37,288 bases of DNA from a virus. Below the pieces are notes generated by a model. It worked only from the letters and a program-made list of their open reading frames with translations, had not been told where the DNA came from and made no database searches. Of the stretch, positions 4,600 to 36,968 are shown one piece after another. The first letter of the stretch is position 1, and each line of letters opens with the position of its first letter. Made by a program: the position numbers and the translations under genes. The DNA is taken from UHGV virus genome UHGV-1407012, one strand, 5' to 3'.

Positions 4600-4788
4600 T
4601 TATTCGTCATGCATTTCAGGTAATTCTTCGTATTCGACTCCCCATACGAGTTTACACCAAGTGACTCGCTCATATCTTTTACAAAAATCAGACCACATAA
4701 CTTGTGTTCCATCATGGTTTGTTATTACTTCTGTAATATCACCAACACTAACAAAACTGGTATTAGAAGCAGTTATTTTTACTTTCAT
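4600..4788 (-). CDS. Hypothetical protein (62 aa)
   Basis: TAATG overlap with upstream gene stop; AT-rich. Confidence 0.55.
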   Translation of the reverse strand: MKVKITASNTSFVSVGDITEVITNHDGTQVMWSDFCKRYERVTWCKLVWGVEYEELPEMHDE

Positions 4789-5075
4789 TACTTATCCCCA
4801 AGAGCTTTTCTGATTGCTGCGATACCTTTATTAACAGCTCCATACCATTCTGGATATGTTGTCGTTGTTCTATTTTTGGTTTGCTTAAGTAATAACTGAA
4901 GTGCTTCGAGAAGGTCAGGAGCTGCTGCTATCAGTAGCGCATCCTCCCTTTCATTTCTTGTTGCTGCTTCAATGTATGTGTCACCAATCGTCACACCATG
5001 GAACGTAGTCATCATCTCGTTGACGTTTCTAACCGTGTACTTCCATTTACCAGGCGTACCCTTAAACTCTTTCAT
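4788..5075 (-). CDS. Hypothetical protein (about 95 aa)
   Basis: ATG 5075 with GAGGTG RBS (track start 5081 is GTG). Confidence 0.55.
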   Translation of the reverse strand: MKEFKGTPGKWKYTVRNVNEMMTTFHGVTIGDTYIEAATRNEREDALLIAAAPDLLEALQLLLKQTKNRTTTTYPEWYGAVNKGIAAIRKALGDK

Positions 5076-5095
5076 ATCCACCTCTGTTGTTTATG

Positions 5096-5123
5096 CCAAA
5101 AATAAAGGCCGACTATGCGGCCT
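5096..5123 (-). terminator. Rho-independent terminator (minus strand) after the membrane-protein gene
   Basis: AGGCCG-loop-CGGCCT stem followed by a U-tract on the minus-strand transcript. Confidence 0.5.
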
Positions 5124-5127
5124 GAGA

Positions 5128-5577
5128 TTACTTAACCAATGATGCTGCATATTCGATAAGGTAAAGCTTTGGGGCCAGCCAAATTTTTAACCAAGTCATA
5201 TTGGTTACTACACCAATAATAAAAATCCCCCACAGAGTCAAAACTCCAACCAATGGCATGATAAGAAGGTTAATATCTCCTTTGCTATCCCAAACCATTG
5301 TCGGCCTGTATTTGGGATTTCCCCTCTCCCATGAGTATCCTTCATCACCGATTTTACCTGTCTCAACTCTTTGGCACTGCTTCTTCATAAACCAGAAAAC
5401 CAGTGGGATTGTTAGAATGGCTATTAATGTTTTAATCAGACTGTCAACCATATTCCATAGCAGCAACTGATGAACAACATCAGGAATCTGCGCTTGGCTG
5501 AATGAAACAGCCGCGTCTATTCCATTGCTGGCTTTTTGCAGTAGTTCTACGAGAATCTTGTTTGCTTGTTCTTCCAT
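5128..5577 (-). CDS. Inner-membrane protein with two predicted TM helices (149 aa); possible superinfection-exclusion-type moron
   Basis: Hydrophobic segments IKTLIAILTIPLVFWFM and LLIMPLVGVLTLWGIFIIGVV; intrinsic terminators on both sides; position equivalent to sieB-type genes of lambdoid phages (inference). Confidence 0.65.
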   Translation of the reverse strand: MEEQANKILVELLQKASNGIDAAVSFSQAQIPDVVHQLLLWNMVDSLIKTLIAILTIPLVFWFMKKQCQRVETGKIGDEGYSWERGNPKYRPTMVWDSKGDINLLIMPLVGVLTLWGIFIIGVVTNMTWLKIWLAPKLYLIEYAASLVK

Positions 5578-5618
5578 ATATCCCCTTGATTGTAATAAGC
5601 ATGAAATTATTTACGGCC

Positions 5619-5648
5619 AAAAAATAAAGGCCACCATCAGGCAGCCTT
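5619..5648 (-). terminator. Candidate rho-independent terminator (minus strand)
   Basis: 9-bp stem that pairs only on the minus-strand RNA (two G-U pairs) followed by UAUUUUUUGG; overlaps the stop codon of ORF 5637..5837. Confidence 0.4.
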
Positions 5649-5837
5649 GTTATTCTGTTTACCAAGTTCTCTGGCAATCATTGCCGTCGTTCGTATTGCC
5701 CATTTATCGACATATTTCCCATCATCCATTACAGGAAACATTTCTTCAGGCTTAACCATGTATTCCGATTGCAGCTTGCATCCATTGCATCGCTTGAATT
5801 GTCCACACCATTGATTTGTATCAATAGTCGTAGTCAT
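5637..5837 (-). CDS. Hypothetical Cys-containing small protein (66 aa)
   Basis: ATG 5837; contains CGQFKRCNGC cluster. Confidence 0.5.
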   Translation of the reverse strand: MTTTIDTNQWCGQFKRCNGCKLQSEYMVKPEEMFPVMDDGKYVDKWAIRTTAMIARELGKQNNKAA

Positions 5838-5907
5838 ACGGATAGTCCTGGTATTGTTCCATCACATCCTGAGGATGCTCTTCGAACTCTTCAAATTCTT
5901 CTTCCAT
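5821..5907 (-). CDS. Possible very acidic micro-protein (28 aa, MEEEFEEFEEHPQDVMEQYQDYPYDYDY)
   Basis: ATG with GAGGTG RBS 4 nt upstream; 3' end overlaps the start of the next gene; too short for ORF track. Confidence 0.25.
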   Translation of the reverse strand: MEEEFEEFEEHPQDVMEQYQDYPYDYDY

Positions 5908-5969
5908 ATCTCACCTCAAATAAGTGGTTTGCTGCCAAAACAATGAACCATCCGGAAATTCCAGATAGT

Positions 5970-6194
5970 TCATAATTCACTCTTCAATACTTCCAACTTA
6001 CTAATCGCCGATAGATATCCGCGCTGATAGGGCATCATCATTCCTTCGAGCTTGCCACTTCTTAACTCCTCCCTGAGCAATTGTATTGCTTGATCAATAA
6101 CCTCTGCCTTAGCGTCCTTTATGGCTTGCTTGCGGGGCTTTGCTTTCTGCTTTGGCAGATTTCTCAAGCATGATGGAATGTATGTCTGATTCAT
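5970..6194 (-). CDS. First gene of the pL operon (74 aa); N-like antiterminator only by position
   Basis: ATG 6194 with GAGG RBS; Lys/Arg-rich N-terminal stretch KQKAKPRKQ but no clear arginine-rich N motif. Confidence 0.55.
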   Translation of the reverse strand: MNQTYIPSCLRNLPKQKAKPRKQAIKDAKAEVIDQAIQLLREELRSGKLEGMMMPYQRGYLSAISKLEVLKSEL

Positions 6195-6437
6195 CACTTA
6201 CCTCGCTGTAACCTGCTTACTTGTACGATGACCAGCTGCGAAAAGCGCAACTTCTGGCAGGCAGACAGTACCACTCTTCAAATCAGCCTCCTTTTTCTTT
6301 TTCTATATCAAAAAGCTGCTTTGCTTTTGTGACTAAAAGCAAAAAAGCCTTCTCGCTAATGAGCAGCATTGCCGTTCATCCTGAACCCGCCGCGCTCCCG
6401 ACGCATGGTTTAATGTCGCGCCGTTCGACATGGCTTA

Positions 6438-6466
6438 ACTATATCCAAAGCTATTATTTCTGTAAA
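6438..6466 (-). promoter_or_regulatory. pL-like early-left promoter (-35 TTTACA, 17-bp spacer, -10 TATAGT on minus strand)
   Basis: Read on the reverse complement; overlapped by operator half-sites. Confidence 0.5.
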
Positions 6467-6473
6467 TAGCTAT
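6447..6473. promoter_or_regulatory. OL-type operator: AAAGCTAT-N11-ATAGCTAT inverted repeat
   Basis: Same half-site and spacing recur between cI and cro (7379..7405). Confidence 0.45.
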
Positions 6474-6560
6474 AGTTATAAAATAACTACTTTGGTTATT
6501 TAGTTGTTGATATATAATGTAATTTATTTTTCTTGAGTGTGATGTTTGGTGTGTTTTGGG

Positions 6561-6588
6561 CAATAAAAAACCCGCAAAAAGCGGGTTT
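6561..6588 (-). terminator. Rho-independent terminator downstream of cI
   Basis: AAACCCGC-loop-GCGGGTTT hairpin followed by UUUAUUG on the minus strand. Confidence 0.6.
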
Positions 6589-6605
6589 GTTGTGGTGTGA
6601 TGCGG

Positions 6606-7337
6606 TTAGTAATCAACTACAGACCACCAGAAAATTCTTCCGATGATCTCAATGTCACTTAGATTCTTTTCTTCTTGTGGGTATTCCAGTGAGTTAAAGC
6701 TTCTAATGCTTACCTTGTCAGGCCCTGTTCGAAAGAGAATCTTAATGCGTTTCCAACCGTTCTCGTTAATGGCGTAAATCTTTCCGTCAACTATTTTCTT
6801 ATCGTTGGTGTTAACAGCAACTGTTGTTCCATCAGGAATGTTTGGCTCCATGCTGTTGCCACGAGCCGGAAAACAAACAACCCCGCTTCCATCACTGTTC
6901 GCGCCAACTCTGCGAAGGGTTGATTTGGAAAAGCGCAACATAAAGCCGTTGTGATCTTCATCAATCACCCGACCATCCCCGCATGCAAACTCAATATCTT
7001 TAAGGTAAGGAATTTCAACTTCATCACCTCTTAAAGGCGTTCCTCCATCCCATGGGTCCAAACATCCCCACGTGCTTTCATGAGGAATAGAAGATTTTGG
7101 ATCATAAGGTTCAACTCCCTCATCACGCATTGGCCCAGTTCCATCGGAAAGCCATTCCGTACGAACTCCAAGCACTTTTGATATTTCAAAAAGTTTGCGC
7201 GTATTGCGTGTTTTTCCAGACGTAAGTTTCCAGACGCTTGGCTGAGACATGCCAACAGCATTGCCAAGAGAAGCCTGAGTAAACCCAGCCTGATCCATCG
7301 CGTATGTAAGCCTTTGAGAAAAAGTATCTAGTTTCAT
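6606..7337 (-). CDS. cI: CI-type prophage repressor (HTH N-domain, LexA-like S24 autopeptidase C-domain)
   Basis: HTH segment QASLGNAVGMSQPSVWKL; C-terminal GNSMEP serine motif and downstream Lys; divergent from cro. Confidence 0.9.
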   Translation of the reverse strand: MKLDTFSQRLTYAMDQAGFTQASLGNAVGMSQPSVWKLTSGKTRNTRKLFEISKVLGVRTEWLSDGTGPMRDEGVEPYDPKSSIPHESTWGCLDPWDGGTPLRGDEVEIPYLKDIEFACGDGRVIDEDHNGFMLRFSKSTLRRVGANSDGSGVVCFPARGNSMEPNIPDGTTVAVNTNDKKIVDGKIYAINENGWKRIKILFRTGPDKVSIRSFNSLEYPQEEKNLSDIEIIGRIFWWSVVDY

Positions 7338-7348
7338 TCGGACAACCT

Positions 7349-7405
7349 ATAGCTACAGCTATTATTAGTCAAATATCTAAAGCTATTTACTTTCTGAATA
7401 GCTTT
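7349..7405. promoter_or_regulatory. OR operator region: 14-bp palindrome ATAGCTacAGCTAT (7349..7362) and AAAGCTAT-N11-ATAGCTTT (7379..7405); includes putative pRM (-35 TTGACT on minus strand)
   Basis: Inverted repeats read directly; arrangement between divergent cI and cro. Confidence 0.45.
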
Positions 7406-7414
7406 GGCTATTAT
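7386..7414 (+). promoter_or_regulatory. pR-like promoter (-35 TTTACT, 17-bp spacer, -10 TATTAT)
   Basis: Positioned about 30 nt upstream of the cro start and overlapped by an operator. Confidence 0.45.
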
Positions 7415-7445
7415 TCTTGTTGTGAATTCAGCAGGAGTTATTTTT

Positions 7446-7676
7446 ATGGTCAACAAGGCTATTAAAGCGGCTATTGACTCAGTAGGAAGTCAGCAAAAGT
7501 TAGCTGATGCCTGCGGTGTTAAGCAGCCGTCTGTATGGGCTTGGTTGCATGGGAAGAAAAGGGTATCCGCTAAAAATGCCAAGCGCATTGAAATGGCTAC
7601 CAATGGAAGCATCCCTGCATACCTGATTCGCCCTGATTTATCCGATTTGTTCCCCAATCCGAACAAAGCAGCTTAA
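7446..7676 (+). CDS. cro: Cro-like repressor (76 aa)
   Basis: ATG 7446 with AGGAG RBS inside track ORF 7404..7676; HTH QQKLADACGVKQPSVWAW. Confidence 0.7.
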   Translation: MVNKAIKAAIDSVGSQQKLADACGVKQPSVWAWLHGKKRVSAKNAKRIEMATNGSIPAYLIRPDLSDLFPNPNKAA

Positions 7677-7795
7677 TAAAGCAAATTTTTATACCGAACG
7701 GCCCGGTATACGGTCGGGTGCCCGGCGTGGTCAAGGATGACTGTCAATGGTGCACGATAAAAACCCAAATTATTTACCTATGGAGATAGTAAGAA

Positions 7796-8092
7796 ATGAC
7801 ACAAGCAAGCTACAGCAAGCCAACACAGCGAGAAATTGATCGCGCTGAAACAGATTTACTCATCAACCTGTCAACGCTTACCCAGCGCGGTCTGGCAAAG
7901 ATGATTGGCTGTCATGAATCGAAGATAAGCAGAACGGACTGGAGATTTATTGCTTCGGTTCTGTGTGCTTTTGGAATGGCATCAGACATCAGTCCGATTA
8001 GCAGGGCTTTTAAGTATGCATTGGATGGAATCACAAAGAAAAAATCCCCGGCCGCCACCGAGGATTTTAAGCAAATTGATATGCAATTCTGA
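7796..8092 (+). CDS. cII: CII-like transcriptional activator
   Basis: C-terminal ...TKKKSPAATEDFKQIDMQF resembles lambda CII ...TNKKRPAATERSEQIQMEF (recalled); HTH KMIGCHESKISR. Confidence 0.85.
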   Translation: MTQASYSKPTQREIDRAETDLLINLSTLTQRGLAKMIGCHESKISRTDWRFIASVLCAFGMASDISPISRAFKYALDGITKKKSPAATEDFKQIDMQF

Positions 8093-8124
8093 GGTCATTA
8101 CTGGATCAATCCACAGGAGTAATT

Positions 8125-8286
8125 ATGACAAAACGTCGTAAGAAATACCAGGAAAAAGAAGAGATTCGACACCCTGATTCACCTGAGGGATTAGTGGTAG
8201 CCGCAGCAAATAACAGGGCTTTCGCAGAGCGCCTTGTTGGTGTTTACAGACTAGCCAAAGCAGGAGTGAAACATGGGCGTCGTTAA
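8125..8286 (+). CDS. Small basic hypothetical protein (53 aa, MTKRRKKYQEKEEIRH...)
   Basis: AGGAG RBS 5 nt upstream of ATG; lies between cII and the replication gene. Confidence 0.4.
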   Translation: MTKRRKKYQEKEEIRHPDSPEGLVVAAANNRAFAERLVGVYRLAKAGVKHGRR

Positions 8287-8335
8287 GTTAGCTGATTACA
8301 GGCATAACCCTGTACAACATCAGGAGGCATCCAGT

Positions 8336-9163
8336 ATGGGGTATGTCTCTATACACCGCCAGTTTATGGACAGCAGGCTCTATAAGGACTCTCAGGCAGT
8401 ACATCTTTGGCTTCACTTAATCCTCAAGGCTAATCACGAATCTACTGTCGTCAATACGGATATCGGGCCGATAACTGTTGATCGCGGTCAGATGATAACT
8501 GGACGCCCGTCGCTGGTCAGAGAAACATTCATCCCCGACAACAAAGTTCGGAGCTTATTACGGACTTTTGAGTCGAAAGGGATGCTTAATATTTGCTCGA
8601 TGGGGAAGAAATTTAGCCTGTTTACAATCGTTAAATATGACGATTTTCAGGCAAAAAATTGTCCAACGGTTGTCCAACGGTTGTCCAACGCAAACACCAG
8701 TAATGGCGCGGCTCTCAGCGGAGATTGTCCAACGGTTGTCCAACGGTTGTCCATAAACAATAATATAAATAATATCTCTAATACTGACGTATTAGAGAGT
8801 GCCACAGCAGACAAAAAGTCTGACAAGAAAAAACCTTCCGTTAGCTGTCAGGATGTTGTCGATGCTTACCACGAAATCCTTCCTGAAGCGCCAAAAATCC
8901 GCGCACTGAATGACAAGCGTAAAAACCAGATCCGAACGTTCTGGCGCAAAGCCGGAGTGATAACCCGCCAGCTTGACGGGCATGGGTTCACGATGCAGGA
9001 CTGGAGAAATTATTTGAGCTACGTAGGCGAAAATTGCCGATGGATGTTCGAAGAGCGTCCAAACCATCAACGCGGAACCGTCTGGCACAAAAAGGGATTT
9101 GATTTCCTGCTTAACGATAATACCTACCTGAAAGTTCGTGAGGGTGAACACGATGACCGATAA
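8336..9163 (+). CDS. Replication initiator (lambda O / P22 gp18 functional analogue) carrying the origin iterons
   Basis: ATG 8336 with AGGAGG RBS (track ORF starts 8273); iterons and AT-rich tract inside the gene; followed by the helicase gene. Confidence 0.75.
   Translation: MGYVSIHRQFMDSRLYKDSQAVHLWLHLILKANHESTVVNTDIGPITVDRGQMITGRPSLVRETFIPDNKVRSLLRTFESKGMLNICSMGKKFSLFTIVKYDDFQAKNCPTVVQRLSNANTSNGAALSGDCPTVVQRLSINNNINNISNTDVLESATADKKSDKKKPSVSCQDVVDAYHEILPEAPKIRALNDKRKNQIRTFWRKAGVITRQLDGHGFTMQDWRNYLSYVGENCRWMFEERPNHQRGTVWHKKGFDFLLNDNTYLKVREGEHDDR
8659..8757. repeat. Origin iterons: six 11-bp TTGTCCAACGG-type direct repeats in two triplets, followed by an AT-rich tract
   Basis: Triplets at 8659..8691 and 8725..8757; AT-rich 8757..8790; encode the repeated peptide CPTVVQRLS. 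Confidence 0.7.
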
Positions 9164-10589
9164 TTTTTATGCGCCGCCCCATAGCATCGAGGCAGAGCAG
9201 GCGGTGATTGGTGGATTGCTTCTGGATGATGACAGCAGTGAGCGCGTCCAGAAAGTTCTGGCGATGCTGAAGCCTGATTCATTTTACAGCCGACCACACA
9301 AAATCATTTTCGAAGAAATAACCAGAATGCACCGGGAGCAAAAGCCAGTAGATGGCCTGACGCTTTTCGATGAACTGGAGCGTAAATCGTTAACGGCGTC
9401 TGTTGGCGGTTTTGCTTATATCGCTGAGATCGCAAAGAACACGCCAAGCGCAGCAAACATCGTTGCCTATGCAATGCAGGTTCGTGAAACCGCAATGGAA
9501 CGCTACGCCATCAACCGCATGACTGAAGCGACGGAATTGCTCTATTCCCGCAATGGAATGACTGCAACGCAGAAGTACGAAGCTATTCAGGCGATTTTCA
9601 CGCAACTGACAGACCATGCAAAAACCGGATCGCGTCGCGGCCTTCGCTCATTTGGTGAGGTCATGGAAGGCTGGGTTAGCGACCTTGAGAAGCGATTTGA
9701 CCCGTCAGGCGAACAACGAGGAATGAGCACAGGGATCCCATCGCTGGACAGGATGCTGTCACCGAAAGGTCTGGTGAAAGGCTCTCTGTTTGTCATTGGC
9801 GCTCGCCCTAAGATGGGGAAAACGACGCTATACAGCCAGATGGCAATCAACTGCGCAGTGCATGAGAAAAAGCCCGCTCTGATGTTCAGCCTTGAAATGC
9901 CAGGTGATCAGATACTGGAAAAACTGGTAGGGCAGAAGTCTGGTGTTAACCCGAATATTTTTTACCTTCCGGCGACAAATGACGCTGATGACGGCTATCA
10001 GGGTGATTACGATGGTGACTTCAACAGGGCGATCGAAACAGCCAATCGCTTGAGTGAAATCGACCTGCTTTACATCGACGACACGCCGGGATTATCTCTG
10101 GCTCAAATCGTCAGCGAAAGCCGTCGAATCAAGCGAGAAAAAGGATGTGTTGGCATGATTCTGGTCGATTACCTGACACTAATGACCGCTGAGAAGGCCG
10201 ATCGCAACGACCTTGCTTACGGCATGATCACCAAAGGACTGAAGAACCTTGCCAAAGAGCTTGATTGCGTTGTTGTGCTTCTGACACAACTTAACCGCGC
10301 ACTGGAAAGCCGAACCAATAAACGCCCGTTACCAAGTGACTCACGAGATACAGGGCAGATTGAACAGGATTGCGATTATTGGGTTGGGATCCATCGGGAA
10401 GGTGCTTTTGATGACAGCGTTCCTCCTGGTGAAACCGAACTAATCCTTCGTCTCAATCGTCATGGCAATACCGGCACGGTGTATTGCATTCAGGCAAATG
10501 GAGCTATTTATGACACAGACCAACAGTCTGCTGAAATGCGCCGCCGTGAACGCGAGGAACCGCAGTCCAAGAAGAAAGGAGGATTCTGA
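9153..10589 (+). CDS. DnaB-type replicative helicase
   Basis: N-terminal IEAEQAVIGGLL motif and Walker A GARPKMGKT; ATG 9153 with GAGGG RBS (track start 9138 is GTG). Confidence 0.9.
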   Translation: MTDNFYAPPHSIEAEQAVIGGLLLDDDSSERVQKVLAMLKPDSFYSRPHKIIFEEITRMHREQKPVDGLTLFDELERKSLTASVGGFAYIAEIAKNTPSAANIVAYAMQVRETAMERYAINRMTEATELLYSRNGMTATQKYEAIQAIFTQLTDHAKTGSRRGLRSFGEVMEGWVSDLEKRFDPSGEQRGMSTGIPSLDRMLSPKGLVKGSLFVIGARPKMGKTTLYSQMAINCAVHEKKPALMFSLEMPGDQILEKLVGQKSGVNPNIFYLPATNDADDGYQGDYDGDFNRAIETANRLSEIDLLYIDDTPGLSLAQIVSESRRIKREKGCVGMILVDYLTLMTAEKADRNDLAYGMITKGLKNLAKELDCVVVLLTQLNRALESRTNKRPLPSDSRDTGQIEQDCDYWVGIHREGAFDDSVPPGETELILRLNRHGNTGTVYCIQANGAIYDTDQQSAEMRRREREEPQSKKKGGF

Positions 10590-10672
10590 TGACCATCTAC
10601 ATTACTGAGCTAATAACAGGCCTGCTGGTAATCGCAGGCCTTTTTATTTGGGGGAGGGTGAATCGTGGCTGA
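10589..10672 (+). CDS. Possible 27-aa hydrophobic peptide (MTIYITELITGLLVIAGLFIWGRVNRG)
   Basis: AAGGAGG RBS; ATG overlaps the helicase stop (TGATG); coding region contains the terminator hairpin. Confidence 0.3.
   Translation: MTIYITELITGLLVIAGLFIWGRVNRG
10617..10649 (+). terminator. Rho-independent terminator after the replication operon
   Basis: AGGCCTGC-loop-GCAGGCCT stem followed by TTTTTATTT. Confidence 0.5.
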
Positions 10673-10871
10673 GTTAATTTTCTCTGCATTGAGGATTCTC
10701 GGTGCTATGTGGATGGTGGCGACGTTCATTGTTGTTGCCAGCAGTTTTGTCCGGTTGGTAGGCGAAGGTAAAGACCTGGTGGGTGTGCTTTTCGGTAGCA
10801 TTTTCCTGTGGGTGATTATCGGTGTTATGCCTGTCGCTGTAGCAAAAATGGCGTGGCGTTTTGTGAGTTGA
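10665..10871 (+). CDS. Small membrane protein (68 aa, two hydrophobic helices)
   Basis: GTG start with GGAGG RBS 8 nt upstream; hydrophobic throughout. Confidence 0.5.
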   Translation: MAELIFSALRILGAMWMVATFIVVASSFVRLVGEGKDLVGVLFGSIFLWVIIGVMPVAVAKMAWRFVS

Positions 10872-10888
10872 ACTGAGGGTAAGTATCG

Positions 10889-11152
10889 ATGGACGAATCA
10901 AGAAAGCAGTTTGAAGAATGGTTTGAAAATTACACCGGATGTGATCCTAAAAATAAAATATACGCCAATATGGTTGAGATGTATTGGCAAGCGTGGCAGG
11001 CATCGCGAGCAGCTATCGAGATTGAGCTGCAAAAGCCAAAGAAAGGCCCACTTCCCGGTGATTATCACATTGGCTATGACTCAGGTGCAGAATCGCAATA
11101 CGAAAGCGATGTAGAGGCTATCCGCGCCGCTGGAATCAAAGTGAAGGAGTGA
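10889..11152 (+). CDS. Hypothetical nin-region protein (87 aa)
   Basis: ORF with GAGGG RBS. Confidence 0.6.
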   Translation: MDESRKQFEEWFENYTGCDPKNKIYANMVEMYWQAWQASRAAIEIELQKPKKGPLPGDYHIGYDSGAESQYESDVEAIRAAGIKVKE

Positions 11153-11156
11153 GTAT

Positions 11157-11411
11157 ATGCCATTTATAAAATTAACCATGCAATGCAGCATCTATCAGCC
11201 ACCAAGCACAGGCGTGATAGAAAGCACCAGAAGTGCATATGAGCCCTTGTACGTTAACTCTGACAACATCGAAACCCTATTTGAGGCCGGGATTACGATT
11301 GTAAGAATGGCAAGTGGTGAGCGGTTCGATGTTATTGAGAAACCAGAAGCTATTTTGGCGTTAATTAATCCATGCGTGCAGAAGGTGAGCAATGAGGAAA
11401 CTAACGTTTGA
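11157..11411 (+). CDS. Hypothetical nin-region protein (84 aa)
   Basis: AAGGAG RBS 7 nt upstream of ATG. Confidence 0.55.
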   Translation: MPFIKLTMQCSIYQPPSTGVIESTRSAYEPLYVNSDNIETLFEAGITIVRMASGERFDVIEKPEAILALINPCVQKVSNEETNV

Positions 11412-11808
11412 ACTAAGAAGCCCCATCCATCAGCAGAACGCCATTCAAGCTATCCAGCAAATCCTTCCAGACCCAACCAAACCAATCGTAGTAACCATTC
11501 AGGAACGCAACCGCAGCATTCGGCAAAATGCACGCCTTCACGCGATGCTATCTGAAATAAGTAAGAAGGCTACATATCATGGAAAAGCAAGAAATATTGA
11601 GTTTTGGAAGGGGTTATTCGTTTCTGGTTGGCAGATTGCAACCAACCAGCACCCTGAGATTATATCAGGGTTAGAAGGTGAGCTAATAAACATCAGAGAG
11701 AGTACAGCGACTCTATCTGTAAAAAAAATATCCGAAATAATGGACTACATAGAAGCATATTGTGCCATGAACTCAATTCATCTTAGCGAATGGAGGAATT
11801 ATGATTGA
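11392..11808 (+). CDS. ninB: NinB (Orf family recombination mediator), C-terminally truncated by an HNH insertion
   Basis: N-terminal ~110 aa (MRKLTFELRSPIHQQNAIQAIQQILPDPTKPIVVTIQERNRS...) track lambda NinB as recalled; frame ends ...SEWRNYD. Confidence 0.8.
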   Translation: MRKLTFELRSPIHQQNAIQAIQQILPDPTKPIVVTIQERNRSIRQNARLHAMLSEISKKATYHGKARNIEFWKGLFVSGWQIATNQHPEIISGLEGELINIRESTATLSVKKISEIMDYIEAYCAMNSIHLSEWRNYD

Positions 11809-12403
11809 GGTTTGGGTAGATATCGAAGGGATTCCATTTTATCAGGTTAGCAATAAAGGAAATTTCAGGTCTATTACGAGGGAGGTTACAGTAACATCAA
11901 CCAGACAGAGGCCATATAAGAAAATAATTAATGGCACTAGTGTAAAACCATTCATGTGCAAGTCGACAGGATATCTTCAAATAAAGGTATACGGTAAGAA
12001 ATACAGCGCCCACAGGATAGTTGCGAAAGCATTCTGTACAGGGTTCTGTGATGGCTTGGTAGTTAATCACAAAAATGGGCGAAGAGATGACAATAGGGCT
12101 GATAACCTTGAATGGGTATCACATTCTGAAAACTCAAAACACGGATATAAACAAAATGGAAGAATACCTGTATCGCTAGGTAAATTTAGTGGTGACCATC
12201 CTGCCAGTAAAGCTGTTATTTCTACTGACATGAAAACTGGGGAGGAGGTTTATTATGAAGCAGCTATGGATGCTGTCAGAGAAGGATTTGATAGTTCGTC
12301 AATTAGTCGTTGCTGTAATGGCGAAAGCTCATATCACAAAGGAAGATTCTGGCGATTTGCAAATGAAACAATGAAAGCGCGATGGGGAGACAGGGCTGCA
12401 TGA
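11801..12403 (+). CDS. HNH homing endonuclease (NUMOD4-like N-terminus plus HNH_3-like domain) whose last ~15 codons derive from the ninB 3' end
   Basis: [17 protein letters not shown] and [25 protein letters not shown] motifs; C-terminus ...[10 protein letters not shown] matches the lambda NinB C-terminus; own GGAGG RBS; AT-rich. Confidence 0.8.
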
Positions 12404-28427: not shown

Positions 28428-29816
28428 ATGGCTACTTGGCAAGGATCAAATGGCGGATTGTTGGCTGGTATCGGTGGCGTCAACTCAAACGCTCCTAGCG
28501 TAAATGACATCGGCAATACGCTTCAGCTCATCAGGCAGAACAATGATATTGAGCGTTCAGGCGCTAACAATGTTGGGCTGACTGCTTTGCAAGGTCTTTC
28601 TGGTATTGCGGGTGTTTTTCAGCAGGAAAAGCAGGCTCAGCGGCAGAAAGAATTTCAGCAGGCATACGCTAATGCCTATTCGTCTGGTGATCGTGGTGCT
28701 TTGCGTCAGTTGGCTACTCAATATCCAGACCAGATTGAATCTGTTCGTAAAGGCATGGGATTCATTGATGAAGACCAGCGCAATTCTATTGGCACCTTAG
28801 CGGCTGGCGCTCGTCTTGCAGCATCGTCTCCAGAAGCAATGCAATCATGGCTGCAAAACAACGCCAAGGAACTGACTCGCGTCGGTGTTGACCCTAATAA
28901 CGTTGCTCAGATGTATCAGCAGAATCCTTCAGGATTTGGTGAGTTTGTTGATCACCTTGGAATGGCTGCTCTTGGTCCAATTGATTACTTCAATGTTCAG
29001 GACAAGATGGCTGGTCGTGAGATTGATCGAGGAAAACTTGCAGAGACAATCCGCAGCAATCAGGCTGGCGAGGCGCTAACAGCACGAGGCCAGAACATCA
29101 CGATGCGCGGTCAGGACTTATCTGCTTCTACTGCGCGACGAGGTCAGGATTTGGCAATGCAGCGAGCGTCAACAAGAGGAATCGCTGGGAATGATGAGCG
29201 TACAGTTCAGTTATCAGATGGCAGAACTGTAACGGTAGGCGGGAAGCTTCATGGCGCTGGGGCTAATGCGTTCTACGAAGGCATCGACAACGAGGGGAAT
29301 ATGGTTCGCGTCCCTGCCAGTTCAATCGCTGCGCCTGCAACATCGTCTGCATCAGCACAAAACTATGCCATGAAGAAGGATATCGACGCGATCGCAAATG
29401 CAGACGCTTCTGCTCTCGATTTCATGACAGGAATGACAGGCGGTGCAGGTAATCCAGCAATTGGTGCTGATGTTCGCAGCCGATTAACGGGAAAAGAGCA
29501 GCGCCAGTTATATAACTCAGCACAACGTATTCAGGGCAGAATGCAGAATCAGGGTGTGGCGGCAGCAAGGGACATGGGTGCCAGTGGTATTAACACCGTT
29601 GCAGAAGCGAAGATGTATTTTCAGGGGATGCCGCAGGTTGACTATTCAAGCCCGGAGGCTATGCAGCAGTCGATTCGTGAAATTCAGGAATACACCAACA
29701 ATTACAACCAACAATATAACGTTAATGTTGGTAAATCTCAGCGTAAGCAATCTCAACCTGCACAGGTATCACAGCCAGCAGCCAGCAGTAACTTTTCTTC
29801 ACTATGGGGTGATTAA
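28428..29816 (+). CDS. Ejection protein (gp20-position homologue)
   Basis: Synteny; 462 aa. Confidence 0.65.
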
Positions 29817-31813
29817 TGGCTAAAGCATGGAAAGATGTTATCGCCTCTCCACAGTATCAGGCGTTAGCACCAGAACAAAAAGCGCAAGCTCAGGAGCAAT
29901 ACTTCAATGAAGTCGTAGCCCCGCAAGCCGGAGAAAATGCAGAGCAGGCTAAGCAAGCTTTCTATGCTGTCTATCCATTGCCATCTGTACAGCCAGTGGA
30001 GACACAGCAACCAGTAGCACAGCAACAACCACAGCAAAGTGGATTTATGTCTGATCTTGGCGAAGCAGTAAAAGAGACTGGTCGCGGACTGGTGCAGGCT
30101 GGCGTGAACGTGGCAAACATACCTGCATCAGTTGCCGATGCTGTAACAAGCGCGGCGGCTTGGGCTGGCGGTAAACTCGGTATTGGCGATGGGACATATC
30201 AACCAGCACCACGAGTAACAACGCAGGGATTAGAGCAGGACTTTGGCCTTCAGCAAGGTGCGCTGACTCCACAAACGACAGAGGGAAGGGTATTTGCTGA
30301 AGCATTGCCTTACCTCACTCCTGCTGGCGTTGAGAGAGCGGCGGCACAGGCACCAACACTTGCTGGTCGAATTGCTCAGGGGGCAACTCGCCTTCTAGCA
30401 GAAAACGCAGTTGGATCACTTGCTGCAAATAGTGCGAAAGATGATGCGGAAGCACTCGCCACCGATTTAGGCGTTGGTGTACTTGCTGGCGGTGCTATTA
30501 ACGCTGCCGGACGTGGATTAGGTGCTGCTTATCGTGGCGTTCGTGGTGCTATCGCGCCAGAAGCTCAGCAGGCTATCAGATTTGCAGAGCGTGAAGGAGT
30601 TCCTCTGCACACCACAGACCTGTTACAACCAACTTCCCGCGTCGGAAAAATGGCGCAGACTACAGCAGAAAATATCCCTCTGGCTGGCACAAGCGGAATG
30701 AGAGCAACGCAACAGGAAGCGAGAAGCCAGTTGGTGCAGAGATTTGCTGATAAATTCGGTGAGTATGATCCAGCGGTTGTTATTGACAGCCTTAAAGCAA
30801 AAACATCAGGAATTCGTCGCGCTGCAGGAAATCGACTGGAGCAGGTTCAGAATGCTATGGCGGGAATAAACATTCAGCCTGCAAGAGCAATTCAGCAGAT
30901 TGATACAGAAATATCTAACCTGCAGAAGCTTGGTAAGGTTGCTGATAACGAGACTATTTCAAAACTTCAGTCCTATCGTGATGAGCTTGTTCGCAATGCT
31001 GGTCCTGATGGTCCGGTAAATCTGGATTTGAAGCAATTAAGCGATCTGCGCAGCCAGTTCAGAATGGACGTGAAGGGTGAGCGACCAGTGTTACCAAACC
31101 GTTCCGATGCTGCCATTCAGCGCGTTTACAAGGCGATGACCGATGATATCAATGGTGCCATTGGTCAGAATCTTGGCAACGATACTCTCCGTAAATATCA
31201 GCAGGCCAATGCCGTCTACGCTGACGAAGCGGCGAAACTAAAGAATACCAGGCTGAAGAATGTTCTCATGAAAGGCGACCTGACGCCGGAAGTTGTCAAC
31301 AACATGCTATTCAGCAAGAACAAATCGGAAATTAAGACGCTGTATAACTCAGTTGGTCGTGTTGGCAGGGCGCAAATGCGCAATGGCATCATTGGAAAGG
31401 CGATGGAGAAATCAGGTGGTTCCCCTGATCAGTTCCTTCGACAGCTTAACATCCTGCAAAACCAGACTGGCATCACATTTAAGGGGCAGGACGCTGCTTA
31501 TCTGAAAGGATTGAAAAACTATCTGCAATCCACGCAGCAGGCTGCAAAATCGGCAGTAACAACACCAACAGGGCAGCAAACCATCCCGTTCATTATCGGG
31601 TATGGGACAGCAATGAACCCGGCGACAACTGGCGCAGCAGTAAGCTACGGACTTCTTACTCGCGCCTATGAGAGCGAGCCATTCAGAAATGCAATGCTCC
31701 GAATGGCAAACACACCACGCGGATCAACAGCGTTTGAGAAAGCCATGCAGCAGGCGCAAAAGGCCATTAACGCCCTGACTCAGGGTGTCAAGTCTGATGC
31801 GTTGTCAGAATAG
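29816..31813 (+). CDS. Ejection protein (gp16-position homologue)
   Basis: Synteny; 665 aa, Ala/Gly-rich. Confidence 0.6.
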   Translation: MAKAWKDVIASPQYQALAPEQKAQAQEQYFNEVVAPQAGENAEQAKQAFYAVYPLPSVQPVETQQPVAQQQPQQSGFMSDLGEAVKETGRGLVQAGVNVANIPASVADAVTSAAAWAGGKLGIGDGTYQPAPRVTTQGLEQDFGLQQGALTPQTTEGRVFAEALPYLTPAGVERAAAQAPTLAGRIAQGATRLLAENAVGSLAANSAKDDAEALATDLGVGVLAGGAINAAGRGLGAAYRGVRGAIAPEAQQAIRFAEREGVPLHTTDLLQPTSRVGKMAQTTAENIPLAGTSGMRATQQEARSQLVQRFADKFGEYDPAVVIDSLKAKTSGIRRAAGNRLEQVQNAMAGINIQPARAIQQIDTEISNLQKLGKVADNETISKLQSYRDELVRNAGPDGPVNLDLKQLSDLRSQFRMDVKGERPVLPNRSDAAIQRVYKAMTDDINGAIGQNLGNDTLRKYQQANAVYADEAAKLKNTRLKNVLMKGDLTPEVVNNMLFSKNKSEIKTLYNSVGRVGRAQMRNGIIGKAMEKSGGSPDQFLRQLNILQNQTGITFKGQDAAYLKGLKNYLQSTQQAAKSAVTTPTGQQTIPFIIGYGTAMNPATTGAAVSYGLLTRAYESEPFRNAMLRMANTPRGSTAFEKAMQQAQKAINALTQGVKSDALSE

Positions 31814-31902
31814 CTTCGCAAACACCAGGAACGTGCAAAAACCAAATATGTAGAACGCAATATTCAGCATATCTCTTTGCATAAATCCTCTGTAACTGAT
31901 GG

Positions 31903-32163
31903 TTAGCTGCTGTCTTTTTTATATAGCTCTTTGAGCGTATCAAAGACAATTTTCTTAACCATATCAGATTGTTGTTCTGCCATACGCTCTGCATCGTCAA
32001 TGTAAACTGATGCAGAGCTTTGTTTAGCCAATGATTCTTCAATCGCTGCAATTATCTCTGAGTTCAGTGACCTGTTATTCATCTTCGCGCTCTGTTTAAT
32101 TTTCGCGTGGAGTTCATGCGGAAGTCTCAAGTGAAACTGCGCCTCGTCGTATTTGCTGTACAT
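31903..32163 (-). CDS. mnt: Mnt-like ribbon-helix-helix repressor
   Basis: C-terminal ...DDAERMAEQQSDMVKKIVFDTLKELYKK resembles P22 Mnt as recalled; ATG 32163 inside track ORF 31903..32196. Confidence 0.7.
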   Translation of the reverse strand: MYSKYDEAQFHLRLPHELHAKIKQSAKMNNRSLNSEIIAAIEESLAKQSSASVYIDDAERMAEQQSDMVKKIVFDTLKELYKKDSS

Positions 32164-32284
32164 CCTTGATGCCTCACCAGTTTGGTGGAATGGCATCGTA
32201 ACCTACTGGATAAATACTCAATAGTACCATTTCGGTATGCAATCACATCATGGTTGCATCATATCATTCGTCTGGAGCAATGAA

Positions 32285-33952
32285 ATGTCAGATATCACCG
32301 CAAATGTTGTGGTAAGCATGCCTTCGCAACTCTTCACTATGGCTCGTTCTTTTAAAGCTGTAGCCAATGGCAAAATTTATATCGGAAAAACTGACACTGA
32401 CCCGGTAAATCCTGAAAACCAGATTCAGGTTTATATGGAGAGCGAAGACGGCTCTCACGTTCCTGTTTCGCAACCAATCATCATTAACGCTGCTGGTTAC
32501 CCTGTATATAATGGACAGATTGCCAAATTCGTTACCGTGCAAGGCCATTCTATGGCTGTTTATGATGCGTACGGTGCGCAGCAGTTTTATTTTCCGAATG
32601 TACTGAAGTACGACCCGGATCAGCTTGAGCAGCGTCTTGCATCATCAATAGGTTCTTCCATGGTTGGCATTACCGATGGAAGGACAGTGCATGATTTTAT
32701 ATCTGTTGATGACTATCAGAGAATTGGTGATATCCGTGGTTACGGGGCGACAAATGAAAACGTAAACCCTGTCAACATTGCCGTTGCCACAGGTGAGGCC
32801 AATGGTCTACTGAAGGTACCTAATGGAGTATGGAGCGGTAATTTTGAGTTAAAAAATAAAACTAGCATAACTGGTGAATCCATAACATCAACAGTTGTTA
32901 ACGTTCCTATAAACACGATCGGAATAAAGCCTGAGGGCTCTGACGTTAGAGGGATTACTATATCAAACATGAATCTCCAAGTTAACGGATCTGTTGCTGG
33001 CGGTCCTCCTGTTGGTAGCGGGGTCGGAATAGACATGTCTTTTTGCGGAAAGGCAGTTAACTGTGAGTTTAACAACCTTTATCTCGATTTCTTTGATATT
33101 GGTTACAACGCTGGATATGCTGATTTTTCAAATATTTATAACAATATGAGGTGCAATAACAACCGAATCGGGATTAACCTATCCAGTAACGGAACAATTA
33201 TTCAAAACGTGTTCAATGGGTGTTATGTTGCAAACTGGACGGCTTATGCCGTGAAAGTTTCTGGCGCTAGCAACCAGATATTCAACGCGCTTAACATGGG
33301 ACATAACGGGTCCGCCAATGCTTATTTCCTGCAGATAGATACGAACTCAAGAGGAATCATATTTAATCAACCTAACTTCGAAATGGACGTTGCAAACGGG
33401 AAAATTACAGCAGGAAGCCAGGCTATCGTGGTCGCCTCTAGTTCTGAGGTTACATTTAACTCCCCGACATTCAACAGGGTTAACGCTGCAGGGGCAAATG
33501 CCTACCTGTTCCGGGTTAGGGGTAACGCTATAGTACGTATAAACGACCCTCAAATCTACAACGACGATGGCACAATAGGTCACCTAATTATCAGTGATGA
33601 AGCTGTTGTTTATCTCAATGATCCAAATCGAATATTCACAGTAATTACTATCCAAGGTAATGGGAGGCTAATACGTGTTGACGAGAAGATATCAAACTCC
33701 CCTAACTATACAAACATTCTTACTTTAAAATCTGGAGACATAATTAACTTTGGATTCTATGCAAGATATGCAATGGCGGTTCCAGATTTTCACTCCAATA
33801 CTATGCCATCACCATTCAAGTACGCAGTGAGCTTTGACACTTACCATAGCAGTGGAACTGCCATTGCTCGAGTGTATGATACAACCACAGGAAATGGAGT
33901 ATCAAACATCAATGTTACATGTTTCGTACAGGCGTGGAGAGAGGATAGATAA
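32285..33952 (+). CDS. Tailspike: P22 gp9-like head-binding N-domain fused to a different beta-helix receptor-binding domain
   Basis: N-terminal ~110 aa ([11 protein letters not shown]...[13 protein letters not shown]...VLKYDPDQ) P22-like; remainder Asn/Gly/Ser/Thr-rich repeats typical of parallel beta-helix; ATG 32285 inside track ORF 32237..33952. Confidence 0.85.
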
Positions 33953-33984
33953 AAATAGGGCGGTTTCCCCGCCCTATTTTTATA
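33953..33984. terminator. Bidirectional rho-independent terminator shared by tailspike (+) and acyltransferase (-)
   Basis: ATAGGGCGG-tttcc-CCGCCCTAT stem flanked by A-run and T-run. Confidence 0.7.
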
Positions 33985-35047
33985 CTGTAACTAAATTGTC
34001 TTCATTTCTATTGGTTTTTCTTTTTAATTTAAGAAAATGTATTTCAAAAAGATAGTATGATGCAATTGATACTATATATGCGATAGCAAACCCACATGCT
34101 ATTATCACAGCATTATTGTTTACTCCAAACAAGGAGGACATTTTGTTTGCAATTGAAAAACACAGCAAATGCCACATATACAAACCATAACTTATCTTTC
34201 CTGTAAATGTTAATGGCTTTAATGATAATGCTTTTGTTATTATTTGTTTTTTCCCTAGCACACTCCACTTGTAAATGAAAAAAATTGCAGATGAAAAAAT
34301 CATCCCAAACGCTGTAAACATATACCAGCATTTCCCAGCCCAATCTACAGGGTTCCAAAAAGCATTAAGACCAACAGAATTTATTCCATTAAGAACCAGC
34401 CCAACACCTGCTATAAAAGTTAAAAATCCTGATTCATATGCGTACTTCTCATCTTTTATCTTTGAAAACAGAGCGCCAAGAACTAACATGTCAATGCAAC
34501 TGATAAGAGTTACATTTACAATGTATGGGTTTCCATCAGTGATTTGAAATATAAAATATCTTGATATACTTGATGTTATTATTAGTATAATAAAAATCAG
34601 ATTCATATTCTTTTTGTTTATGAAAAATATGAATAGAGGCCAAAGCCAGTAAAATTGTTCTTCCACTGCAAGAGACCAGGTGTGCCCCAAAATTCCAGGT
34701 GTTGTAACATTTATTCCTATATAATAGTTTTGTAGATAAGTTATAAACCACAAATAACCATCCGTTGGTTTCCCAGTTGCAATTAGAAGAATAAAGTTAA
34801 CAAGTAGGTAAGCATAAAATAACGGGAATATTCTAAGAGATCTATTTATAAGAAATCGTTTAATATAGTTACTAAAACCAGAGTCTTTATCCTCGATAAG
34901 GATTGAGGTAATTAAGAAACCAGATAAGCAAAAGAACAGCGGAACTCCAGACCAACCAAGAGAAAATCCTGAAACTTTGGCATGAAAAAGCATTACAATG
35001 AGCACCGCAATACCTCTCACACCATCTAAAGATTGTATATGTTTCAT
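33980..35047 (-). CDS. oac: Acyltransferase-3 family integral membrane O-antigen O-acetyltransferase (serotype-conversion type)
   Basis: N-terminal MKHIQSLDGVRGIAVLIVMLFH signature, about 10 TM helices, strongly AT-rich relative to the phage backbone; location between tailspike and int. Confidence 0.85.
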   Translation of the reverse strand: MKHIQSLDGVRGIAVLIVMLFHAKVSGFSLGWSGVPLFFCLSGFLITSILIEDKDSGFSNYIKRFLINRSLRIFPLFYAYLLVNFILLIATGKPTDGYLWFITYLQNYYIGINVTTPGILGHTWSLAVEEQFYWLWPLFIFFINKKNMNLIFIILIITSSISRYFIFQITDGNPYIVNVTLISCIDMLVLGALFSKIKDEKYAYESGFLTFIAGVGLVLNGINSVGLNAFWNPVDWAGKCWYMFTAFGMIFSSAIFFIYKWSVLGKKQIITKALSLKPLTFTGKISYGLYMWHLLCFSIANKMSSLFGVNNNAVIIACGFAIAYIVSIASYYLFEIHFLKLKRKTNRNEDNLVTV

Positions 35048-35237
35048 GCTAAAAATCCATATTCTACGGGAAGCGGGAGTCTATCAGATTTAGTTGATAT
35101 TATCTATATAGACTAACTAGATGTTATCTAGCGATTGACTGTCATTCTATGTATATTTTCACGCCTGTTATCATATAACTTGATCATTTGGTATTTTGAG
35201 AGATTAACTTCTTTTGTTTCCAGTGTGGCTATGCCAA

Positions 35238-36395
35238 TTACTCCACCTTTTCATCAATCCAGTCCGCCCACCACTGCATCATTTCTCTGCGCTTATCGAG
35301 ATACTGAGCATGGTTGTAAATCCCACGCACAGATCCGCCGTTGGCATGTGCCAGTTGCACTTCAATGGCGTCGGCAGGCCATTCGTGCTCGTTCATAATC
35401 GTGCTGAATTCATGCCTGAATCCGTGACCGCTTTCCAGCCCCTCATAGCCGATTTGTTTGATCACAAGCAATACCGCGTTCTCGCAGATTGGCTTCTTCT
35501 TATCGTTGCGTCCGGCAAAAACAAACTCTGATACCGGTTTAGTGATTGAGCTTAGCGTAGTGAGAAGTTCAATAACCTGGTCCGACATAGGAACCACATG
35601 AATCTTGCGTCCCTTCATCACATTGGCGTCGATGGTGATAATCCTGTTTTCAAAATCGACGTTCTTCCATTGCATGGAACGAAGCTCTTTCGTTCTTAGG
35701 GCTGTATAGCGTAAAACCTTGGTCGCAATGAGCGATACGATGCTTCCTGAAAATGTTGCCAGTGCTTTGTTAAATGCCGGGATCTGGTCTGCAGGAAGAA
35801 ACGGGAAGTTTTTCTTGCGGTATCCCTTCATGGCGTCAGCAAGGTCAGGTGCCGGGTTATATTTAGCCCTGCCGGTGACAATAGCGTAACGGAAAACCTC
35901 GCCGCATCTTCTGCGGGCTTTATTTGCTCGCTCCATTGCACCGCGATCTTCAAATCTGCGGATTACTTCCAGCAGTTGCATCGGCTCAATATCCTGAATC
36001 TCAAGACCGCCGATGATGGGTAAAATGTCGTCATCAAACATTTTGGCAAGTTCAGTTGCATAGCCTACTGACCAGACTTGCTTCTTGTGCTCGTACCATT
36101 CCTTGTAAATCGCACTAAAGGAATTGTTGTTAGACGAAGCCTTTTTCGCCTTTACCGGATCGATGCCGACCGAGATGTCTTTCCTCGCAGTCCATGCTTT
36201 ATCCCTTGCCTCTTGCAAAGTCATAAGCGGATATTTTCCGACGGTCAGGATTTTCTCCTTACCGTCAATCTTGTAGCGAAGCTGCCATACCTTTTTCCCG
36301 GATACAGGGACATAAAGGTACAGGCCATTACCATCGAGTAGGCGGTATGGTTTTTCTTTCGGCTTTGCTGCTTCAATCTGCTTAACAGTGAGCAT
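35238..36395 (-). CDS. int: Tyrosine integrase, P4-type with N-terminal arm-binding domain
   Basis: LTVKQIEAAKPKEKPYRLLDGNGLYLYV N-domain; catalytic HGFRH and C-terminal Tyr region; ATG 36395 (track start 36431 is GTG). Confidence 0.85.
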   Translation of the reverse strand: MLTVKQIEAAKPKEKPYRLLDGNGLYLYVPVSGKKVWQLRYKIDGKEKILTVGKYPLMTLQEARDKAWTARKDISVGIDPVKAKKASSNNNSFSAIYKEWYEHKKQVWSVGYATELAKMFDDDILPIIGGLEIQDIEPMQLLEVIRRFEDRGAMERANKARRRCGEVFRYAIVTGRAKYNPAPDLADAMKGYRKKNFPFLPADQIPAFNKALATFSGSIVSLIATKVLRYTALRTKELRSMQWKNVDFENRIITIDANVMKGRKIHVVPMSDQVIELLTTLSSITKPVSEFVFAGRNDKKKPICENAVLLVIKQIGYEGLESGHGFRHEFSTIMNEHEWPADAIEVQLAHANGGSVRGIYNHAQYLDKRREMMQWWADWIDEKVE

Positions 36396-36399
36396 GGGT

Positions 36400-36640
36400 A
36401 AAAATCCGGTGGGTAAAATTATTTTATCCACTTTTTACCCGTCATGGAGTACGGCTGTCAACGATCTGACGCGAACCATTACGAACTGTGAATCTACGGA
36501 AGGCTTGATATTCAGGGGATTTTGCGGACTGGTACGGATGGGAGCGAACTGATAAATGGTGTCCCCTGCAGACATCTACTTGACGCGGCAGGGGATTGAT
36601 TGGAATGATGTTTTTTAGATGTGAGAAATATTTTACCCGC
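36400..36640. repeat. int-xis intergenic region with five copies of TTTTACCC/GGGTAAAA in both orientations (candidate recombinase arm-type or regulatory sites)
   Basis: Copies at about 36406, 36415, 36440, 36620 and 36631, the last two as a tandem TATTTTACCC pair. Confidence 0.3.
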
Positions 36641-36644
36641 TATT

Positions 36645-36845
36645 TTACCCATTGGCGCGGCTTAAAAGCTTATTCTTGAATTCACAATGGTCACGATATA
36701 ACCATCTTGCTCGCCCGTGGATAACTTTGGCTTTAGGCAGGTCTCCGGACTTAATCCGGTCATAGATGAAGGTTTTACCGAAGCCAGTATCGGCCATGAT
36801 GAATTTCAAATCAACCAGTGAATCAGGCTGTAGTTCGTGTTGCAT
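36645..36845 (-). CDS. xis: AlpA-family excisionase/transcriptional regulator
   Basis: 66 aa with HTH ...LVDLKFIMADTGFGKTFIYDRIKSGDLP... and conserved Trp; upstream of int on the same strand. Confidence 0.7.
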   Translation of the reverse strand: MQHELQPDSLVDLKFIMADTGFGKTFIYDRIKSGDLPKAKVIHGRARWLYRDHCEFKNKLLSRANG

Positions 36846-36968
36846 GAGTGCTATCTCCGAATAGGGAATCGAACCTGCAAATCAGGCAATAAAAAACCGC
36901 ATTGATGCGGCGATGGTAGGTCTGGATATCATTGAGCAATGAACAGGCCTCATCGAGTGTGAGGCGGG

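Follow-up and report, generated by a model that had tools for sequence, protein, structure and literature searches.

A tailspike and acyltransferase-3 gene module in the Sf6-like phage genome UHGV-1407012, with a probable role in host recognition and serotype conversion

Modules in which a tailspike gene is accompanied by a gene for an O-antigen modifier are textbook knowledge, from Sf6, g341c and Sf101 to the gtr cassette of P22. In Sf6 the module is formed by gene 14, which encodes the endorhamnosidase tailspike, gene 15 (oac) and gene 16 (int); in the Sf6 record one putative terminator, that of oac, is annotated between genes 14 and 15, which converge, and a putative oac promoter between the acetylase gene and int. 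The Salmonella phage g341c (Lederbergvirus) combines a tailspike gene with a convergent gene for an O-polysaccharide acetyltransferase, with two Rho-independent terminators annotated, one per strand. The gtrABC cassettes of the P22/SfV type use three proteins for the glucosylation of the O-antigen. In this work we analyze positions 32285-35047 of the virus genome UHGV-1407012 (37,288 nucleotides, the whole of which is referred to as the window), where a tailspike gene and a convergent gene for a stand-alone acyltransferase-3 (AT3) membrane protein precede an integrase gene. We consider it probable that this region serves an Sf6/HK620-like (Lederbergvirus) temperate phage of Escherichia as its module for host recognition and serotype conversion. 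A function in O-antigen specificity and lysogenic conversion is supported by homology and synteny, because the layout is identical to that of the characterized gene 14/oac/int module of Sf6 and to that of g341c, because relatives of the receptor-binding domain (RBD) of the tailspike precede gtrABC, an operon for O-antigen glucosylation, and because the AT3 protein bears the motifs of stand-alone AT3 sugar O-acetyltransferases (PMC9558356).

Layout of the module and limits of the exchanged block

A reading of the window made earlier from the sequence alone (hereafter the sequence-only reading) had given the module the coordinates stated above, and they are exact: the region runs from the ATG of the tailspike gene (MSDITANVV...) at 32285 to 35047, where the start codon of the minus-strand acyltransferase gene has its first base. 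The order and the orientations of the tailspike, AT3 and int genes are identical to those of the Sf6 genes 14, 15 and 16; moreover, a hairpin between the convergent genes lies at the position equivalent to the Sf6 terminator, and the region upstream of the AT3 gene at the place equivalent to the putative oac promoter (Table 1). Sf6 DNA is 86% identical to the window over 32269-32623, in the part encoding the head-binding domain, after which the homology ends, to come back with 96% identity at 35245, at the end of int. The attP core of Sf6 and HK620, ATGGTGTCCCCTGCAG, is intact at 36556-36571 and is followed by a xis-like gene at 36645-36845, which indicates that the window is in phage order (excised or permuted) rather than in prophage order. 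By its sequence, the window is a mosaic Lederbergvirus, near IME10, HZ41 and Sf6.

Between the conserved flanks, the RBD-coding part, the terminator, the AT3 gene and the AT3 upstream region form one swapped block of 2.6 kb (32624-35244), which stands in place of the Sf6 RBD, oac and the oac promoter. The upstream region is specific to this lineage: the homology with the related loci L001 and L002 (Table 2) ends at 35055 and 35048, respectively, and that with Sf6 resumes at 35245. The spike comprises 555 residues compared to 623 in Sf6, and its RBD is without detectable similarity to that of Sf6 beyond residue ~180. The g341c spike aligns to residues 1-233 at 56%, while the RBDs are unrelated after residue ~233; in contrast to the short acyltransferase described here, the g341c acetyltransferase has ~640 residues, a size that suggests an AT3-SGNH fusion, and it is followed by a gtr flippase gene.

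Table 1. Coordinates of the module and of its right flank in the window (aa, amino acid residues)
Feature	Position	Strand	Remarks
Tailspike N-terminal head-binding (particle-attachment) domain, aa 1-114	32285..32626	+	Conserved left flank of the swapped block
Tailspike RBD, aa 115-555: neck, beta-helix, C-terminal beta domain	32627..33952	+	Presumed glycan-cleaving
Symmetric bidirectional intrinsic terminator	33950..33982	both	From sequence and RNA folding
Stand-alone AT3 membrane protein, 355 aa	33980..35047	-	PF01757; presumed O-antigen O-acetyltransferase, with a presumed role in lysogenic conversion and superinfection exclusion
AT3 gene upstream region, about 190 bp, two sigma-70-like sites	35048..35244	-	Right end of the swapped block
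Tyrosine integrase, IntS type	35238..36431	-	PF00589, PF22022, PF13356; conserved right flank of the block

The hairpin between the convergent genes, AAAAATAGGGCGG-TTTCC-CCGCCCTATTTTT, is perfectly symmetric, and its stem holds both stop codons (the TAA of the spike gene at 33950-33952, and TTA at 33980-33982, which is the TAA of the AT3 gene). Folded as RNA it yields -25.4 kcal/mol on the plus strand and -24.0 kcal/mol on the minus strand, with z-scores of -6.0 and -5.8 and none of 200 shuffles as stable, in agreement with the proposal of the sequence-only reading that both genes share a bidirectional terminator. The GGGCGG/CCGCCC stem is kept at the equivalent site in L001 and L002, with different loops. 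The hairpin was found by direct folding and was not listed by the consensus terminator scan, probably because its A and T runs pair together and are counted as stem; symmetric hairpins of this type will escape that scan.

The tailspike and the acyltransferase

The tailspike gene (32285-33952, plus strand) has a GGAG Shine-Dalgarno sequence 8 nt 5' of its ATG, and the homologues begin at the same residue; a longer open reading frame (ORF) that starts at 32237 was set aside, as no homologue uses this start. Residues 1-113 match the whole PF09008 profile (E 8e-66), and the N-terminus of Sf6 gp14 (7sg7 in the PDB) aligns to residues 1-124 (E 4e-63), which bears out the assignment of the first ~110 residues to a P22-type head-binding domain. 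The remainder had been described as a different, Asn/Gly-rich beta-helix domain, and this description stands as well: Asn accounts for 12.5% and Gly for 9.8% of the RBD residues (Asn is half as frequent, 6.3%, in the RBDs of Sf6 and g341c), and no Pfam, PHROG or NCBIfam model matched residues 115-555. Among 50,697 phage records, searched at the DNA level and with tblastn, no alignment extends beyond residue ~233 of the tailspike, and none of the sequenced phages among them carries this RBD. The serogroup-specific RBD subtypes defined by Pas et al. 2023 (PMC10408124) were derived from sequenced phages, and they are therefore unlikely to include the RBD discussed here.

When 1.84 billion cluster representatives were searched exhaustively with HMMER, only 23 relatives of the RBD appeared at E<=1e-3, 10 of them at E<=1e-30, and scans of sequence collections with the alignment of the close family added only 2 genomic and 6 viral loci; the family is thus a small one. 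Its members are joined to four different anchors, namely those of P22 (PF09008), of the T7 tail fibre (PF03906), of TSP1/gp66 (PF18668) and of the tail-collar fibre (PF12571), and the most remote relatives match the pectate-lyase-like family PF12708. Structure prediction for the C-terminal part of the tailspike, which the sequence-only reading had proposed as a check, was carried out with AlphaFold and predicts a parallel beta-helix of the right-handed type and, after it, a C-terminal domain rich in beta structure, with a block-mean pLDDT (predicted local distance difference test score) mostly of 78-94 across residues 141-470; since different anchors are mixed in the alignment, the model is poor for the head-binding part. 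Among the best structural neighbours of the model are CBA120 TSP2 (O157-specific) and the depolymerases Belisarius gp86, from an Acinetobacter phage, and AS12 gp42, all at 11-15% identity, and Foldseek indicated the same fold class. These proteins carry other N-terminal anchors and act on different, unrelated substrates, so that the likeness is one of fold.

With respect to the active site, E366, in the motif N-F-E-(M)-D, is the sole invariant acidic residue across 18 members of the family, down to ~20% identity, and R289, Y314 and Y407 are likewise invariant; in the close family D271, D280, D368, D446 and D518 are invariant, too. An enzymatic spike with E366 in its active site is the reading that fits this conservation best, and we regard E366 as the leading candidate for the catalytic residue. 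A spike of the SGNH esterase type was considered and rejected, since neither PF13472 nor PF00657, which are found in other P22-type spikes in the match list, matched the sequence.

The AT3 protein matches PF01757 (Acyl_transf_3) over positions 2-325 of the 326-position profile (E 1.8e-25) and has no second domain; it also matches the O-acetyltransferase family PHROG 3333 (E 1e-39) and a PHROG named 'O-antigen acetylase'. It contains the motif R/K-X10-H as R11...H22 and the motif RXXR as R69-S-L-R72, and its hydropathy profile (17 overlapping windows, grouped to ~8 clear segments) is compatible with about 10 transmembrane segments; no SGNH domain was found in it. In stand-alone AT3 sugar O-acetyltransferases, e.g. 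the Oac proteins of Shigella phages, R/K-X10-H is located in the first transmembrane segment and RXXR in the first cytoplasmic loop (PMC9558356), and the motifs, the fit with ~10 transmembrane segments and the lack of an SGNH domain together match stand-alone AT3 sugar O-acyltransferases of the Oac/OacB/WbaK type. Orthology with Sf6 Oac was rejected, as the two proteins share 29% identity over the 85 N-terminal residues only (E 1e-4), which makes the AT3 protein an analogue in the same slot. Its best matches among the phage records are acetylases of Pseudomonas phages, at 29%, and a sequence search of the PDB returned no related solved structure.

The low content of guanine and cytosine (GC) that the sequence-only reading had ascribed to the AT3 gene was recovered in the GC profile: at 0.318 (0.261 at third codon positions) the gene is the minimum of all 1068-bp windows along the 37-kb window, ~3.6 standard deviations (sd) below their mean (0.474, sd 0.043), compared to 0.418 both for the RBD-coding part of the spike gene and for Sf6 oac. 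Upstream of the gene there are two promoter-like sites, ATAACA-16-TAGAAT (35171..35144) and ATAACA-17-GATAAT (35127..35099), each with 9 of 12 consensus matches.

Linkage with modifier genes and distribution among hosts

The genes that follow the RBD in its relatives are listed in Table 2. They repeatedly belong to O-antigen modification systems, and where they are gtr genes (RBD identities of 72%, 64%, 54% and 51%) they are convergent with the spike gene and occupy the slot held here by the single AT3 gene. This repeated pairing is the best available evidence that the receptor of the spike is an O-antigen. In L001 and L002 a continuous stretch of DNA is 70-72% identical to the window; it spans the RBD-coding part, the hairpin and the AT3 gene and ends at the start codon of the latter. 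Collinear and similarly diverged copies of RBD, terminator and AT3 gene in three lineages point to co-inheritance, also across a change of the tail type, and judging from these alignments the three elements appear to have been inherited together in the three closest lineages.

Table 2. Genes following the RBD in related loci, sorted by the identity of the RBD protein to that of the window
RBD identity	Locus or host	Following gene(s)
>=99%	Many E. coli prophages	AT3, 100% identical
84%	L002, P22-like	AT3, 71%
77%	L001/L036, T7-like prophage, Trabulsiella odontotermitis	AT3, 73%
72%	L029	gtrABC
64%	L003-5/L037, Enterobacter cancerogenus	gtrABC
54%	L030	gtrAB; the third gene differs
51%	L008-10, E. 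coli	gtr genes, degraded in part
50%	L006	Integrase gene, immediately adjacent
About 42%	Morganella L007, L031, L032; metagenome L038	Nothing, an integrase gene, or, 1.4-1.6 kb further downstream, a distant AT3 gene

The T7-like element at L001 (positions 1-12300 of JNGI01000178.1; also L036) is an integrated prophage adjoining the host genes tadA, mltF and purL. Its products include a terminase of the T7 type, an internal virion protein with an SLT domain and a tail fibre (PF03906) that carries the RBD; the convergent AT3 gene comes after the fibre gene, and genes for a holin and a lysozyme come next. For Enterobacterales it is unusual that a temperate T7-like element bears a conversion gene. 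In L002 (10880-11266), L029 (9615-10001) and L030 (9564-9953) the conversion genes are followed, in place of an integrase gene, by a gene for a protein of 128-129 residues with a weak match to Peptidase_S24, an organization different from the Sf6 type. Integrated at the same site of the chromosome, other P22-like prophages of E. coli (L024-L028) possess a second AT3 subfamily, with proteins of 373-393 residues that are 56-58% identical to the one described here, and in the one pair compared (L027) the AT3 gene adjoins a spike of 636 residues with an unrelated RBD. The slot between int and the spike is a hot spot in which a range of spike and AT3 combinations is found.

Within an assembly collection, 147 blocks list the identical AT3 protein (25 contigs were read), and its cluster has named members in E. 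coli and in E. albertii. Assemblies with both the exact spike and the exact AT3 protein include GCA_019297505.1, GCA_045583995.1, GCA_044017355.1, GCA_027116095.1 and GCA_014413125.1, and there are E. albertii carriers as well. Of the 10 places shown, 9 have the gene order fadL, mlaA, yfdC, int, AT3, tailspike, which puts the module at the prophage end near int; this site beside yfdC we take to be argW, from the K-12 map and from Sf6, HK620 and Kapi1. A search of 5,426 complete RefSeq E. coli genomes with the RBD and AT3 block gave no DNA match, near or distant, and hence the serogroup of the host is not readable from annotated complete genomes. The module is found in draft assemblies, yet it has no DNA match in the complete E. 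coli genomes or in the phage records. A full-text literature search with four protein accessions returned no paper.

Two degraded prophages retain an intact AT3 gene. In L015 (6001-7497) the spike is cut to its last ~133 codons, with genes of the early region directly after, and in L022 (5750-8525), located elsewhere in the chromosome at dacD-sbcB, the RBD part is intact as well, while the first ~80 codons of the spike gene are gone and the remainder adjoins an IS1. Their retention of the AT3 gene is compatible with selection for the conversion gene. An IMG/VR contig (L034, 6357-7106) matches 250 of the 355 AT3 residues at 99% identity and may carry a truncated or frameshifted allele.

As regards the genomic neighbourhood, the spike gene is located 3' of a gp16-type ejection-protein gene and of a gene for a Mnt/Arc-type ribbon-helix-helix repressor (97 residues, 31903-32196, minus strand, directly upstream of the spike), as expected for a P22-like tailspike, the gene of which comes after those for the ejection proteins gp7, gp20 and gp16 and after the Mnt/Arc region. 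In the window no antirepressor gene was found between the latter gene and the spike, where L006, L007 and L016 have an ant gene of the P22_AR type. An ORF of 665 codons at 29816-31813 received no family in the Pfam scan, whereas the equivalent 665-residue gene in near-identical prophages and in L002 has PF26808. The Rfam scan of 31700-36900 detected no family and the PADLOC scan no system. A small RNA or a hidden gene in the spacer between the AT3 gene and int was considered and set aside, no Rfam family being present there; two plus-strand ORFs, of 87 and 105 residues, begin in this spacer and extend antisense into int.

Interpretation of the module

Several observations weigh against the assignment of the module to O-antigen recognition and serotype conversion. 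Due to its remote relation to Sf6 Oac, the function of the AT3 protein is not transferable by orthology, and AT3 proteins act on many glycans: O-antigen, enterobacterial common antigen, peptidoglycan and capsules (PMC9558356). The promoter-like sites of the AT3 gene are weak consensus matches, no commoner than in shuffled sequences. The linkage is not obligatory, as the RBD with 72% identity is followed by gtrABC and some relatives lack a modifier gene, and the AT3 relatives with 56-58% identity share the slot with a spike of unrelated RBD. Finally, the best structural neighbours of the RBD include capsule depolymerases, which score equal to an O-antigen spike, at 15% identity.

It is unlikely, in our opinion, that the spike and the AT3 protein form a pair for capsule depolymerization and capsule acetylation, directed at another surface glycan such as a group 1/4 capsule, colanic acid or enterobacterial common antigen. 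The predicted likeness to the structural neighbours is one at the level of the fold, from which an O-antigen target and a capsule target are not distinguishable, and the hit of the RBD to a capsule depolymerase, a kind of match that the sequence-only reading had named as speaking against itself, is tied with the O-antigen spike at the low identity just mentioned and hardly amounts to a meaningful match; the genes that follow the RBD in its relatives, on the other hand, speak for the O-antigen. Improbable, too, is a permissive insertion slot, in which the AT3 gene would have arrived independently, as a moron acting on a glycan unrelated to that of the spike, with no receptor/anti-receptor logic. 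The difference in GC content between the two genes (0.418 vs 0.318) agrees with such a slot, as do the pairing of the 72%-identical RBD with gtrABC and the presence of AT3 relatives (56-58%) in the same slot with unrelated RBDs. However, the RBD and AT3 proteins of L001 and L002 are encoded by collinear genes and have diverged to a similar degree (Table 2), L001 has a different tail type, and the homology stops exactly at the AT3 start codon; this pattern is predicted by co-inheritance and not by repeated independent insertion. It is also improbable that the RBD binds its glycan without hydrolysing it, or exhibits another activity such as that of a lyase or a deacetylase: no glycoside-hydrolase family model matched and the wider family retains the single acidic residue E366, where classical spikes use two or three carboxylates, but the close family keeps the five aspartates as well, the SGNH/GDSL esterase domain of some P22-type spikes is lacking and the nearest folds are all active depolymerases.

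For the preferred reading, a module of host recognition and serotype conversion, domain architecture, fold class, motifs, composition, terminator, block boundaries, synteny and distribution are shown by the analysis, while we infer the O-antigen as the target, its hydrolysis by the spike, its acetylation and superinfection exclusion, and we propose the following scheme. The trimeric spike would dock on the tail via the conserved P22-type head-binding domain, and the rare beta-helix domain would bind and most likely cleave the O-antigen of the host, probably with the help of E366, so that the virion reaches the outer membrane. Once the phage has integrated next to yfdC, the AT3 gene would be ~1.4 kb away from the prophage end at int and would act as a moron, presumably expressed in the lysogen from a promoter of its own, for which the two sites at 35171..35144 and 35127..35099 are weak candidates. 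The symmetric hairpin would halt the transcription of the AT3 gene before it runs antisense into the spike gene, and the late transcription of the spike gene before it runs antisense into the AT3 gene. The AT3 product would carry an acyl group, probably acetyl, through the inner membrane and attach it to the O-unit; with its O-units acylated, the lysogen may display another serotype and offer same-type spikes a poor substrate. For Sf6 it is established that Oac, by modifying the O-antigen, changes the serotype and impedes spikes with that specificity (PMC9558356). The whole block may be exchanged by recombination in the conserved flanks, i.e. at the end of the head-binding domain and at the end of int, and RBD, terminator and AT3 gene, in a diverged copy, seem to have been grafted also onto a T7-type tail-fibre anchor.

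It is tempting to go further, and to regard the RBD, the terminator and the AT3 gene as a self-contained cassette, a receptor key combined with a lock-changer, which has moved as a unit between unrelated tail architectures with P22-type and T7-type anchors, so that host range and the exclusion of superinfection by phages with the same spike would travel together, and to regard the RBD as the founder of a small, undescribed family of O-antigen-cleaving domains with the catalytic motif N-F-E-(M)-D. This extended proposal is a tentative one, which we find quite possible but stop short of calling probable. What is new here is the particular pair, namely a rare, unannotated RBD family and an AT3 subfamily remote from the characterized Oac proteins. 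A modest new observation is that the alignments point to joint transfer of RBD, terminator and AT3 gene between prophages of the P22-like and the T7-like kind.

Tailspike domains and O-antigen modifiers decide which strains can be infected and which serotype the lysogen acquires, and the pair analyzed in this work is widespread in draft genomes of Escherichia, without a described specificity. The finding extends the Sf6 paradigm and leaves the current understanding unchanged. If the receptor and the modification were identified, they would provide a further pair of O-antigen and spike for typing and for phage engineering, and they would explain non-cluster O-acetylation in the serology of E. 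coli or E. albertii. They would also provide a clean case of a spike domain and a matching receptor-masking gene that move together between phage families.

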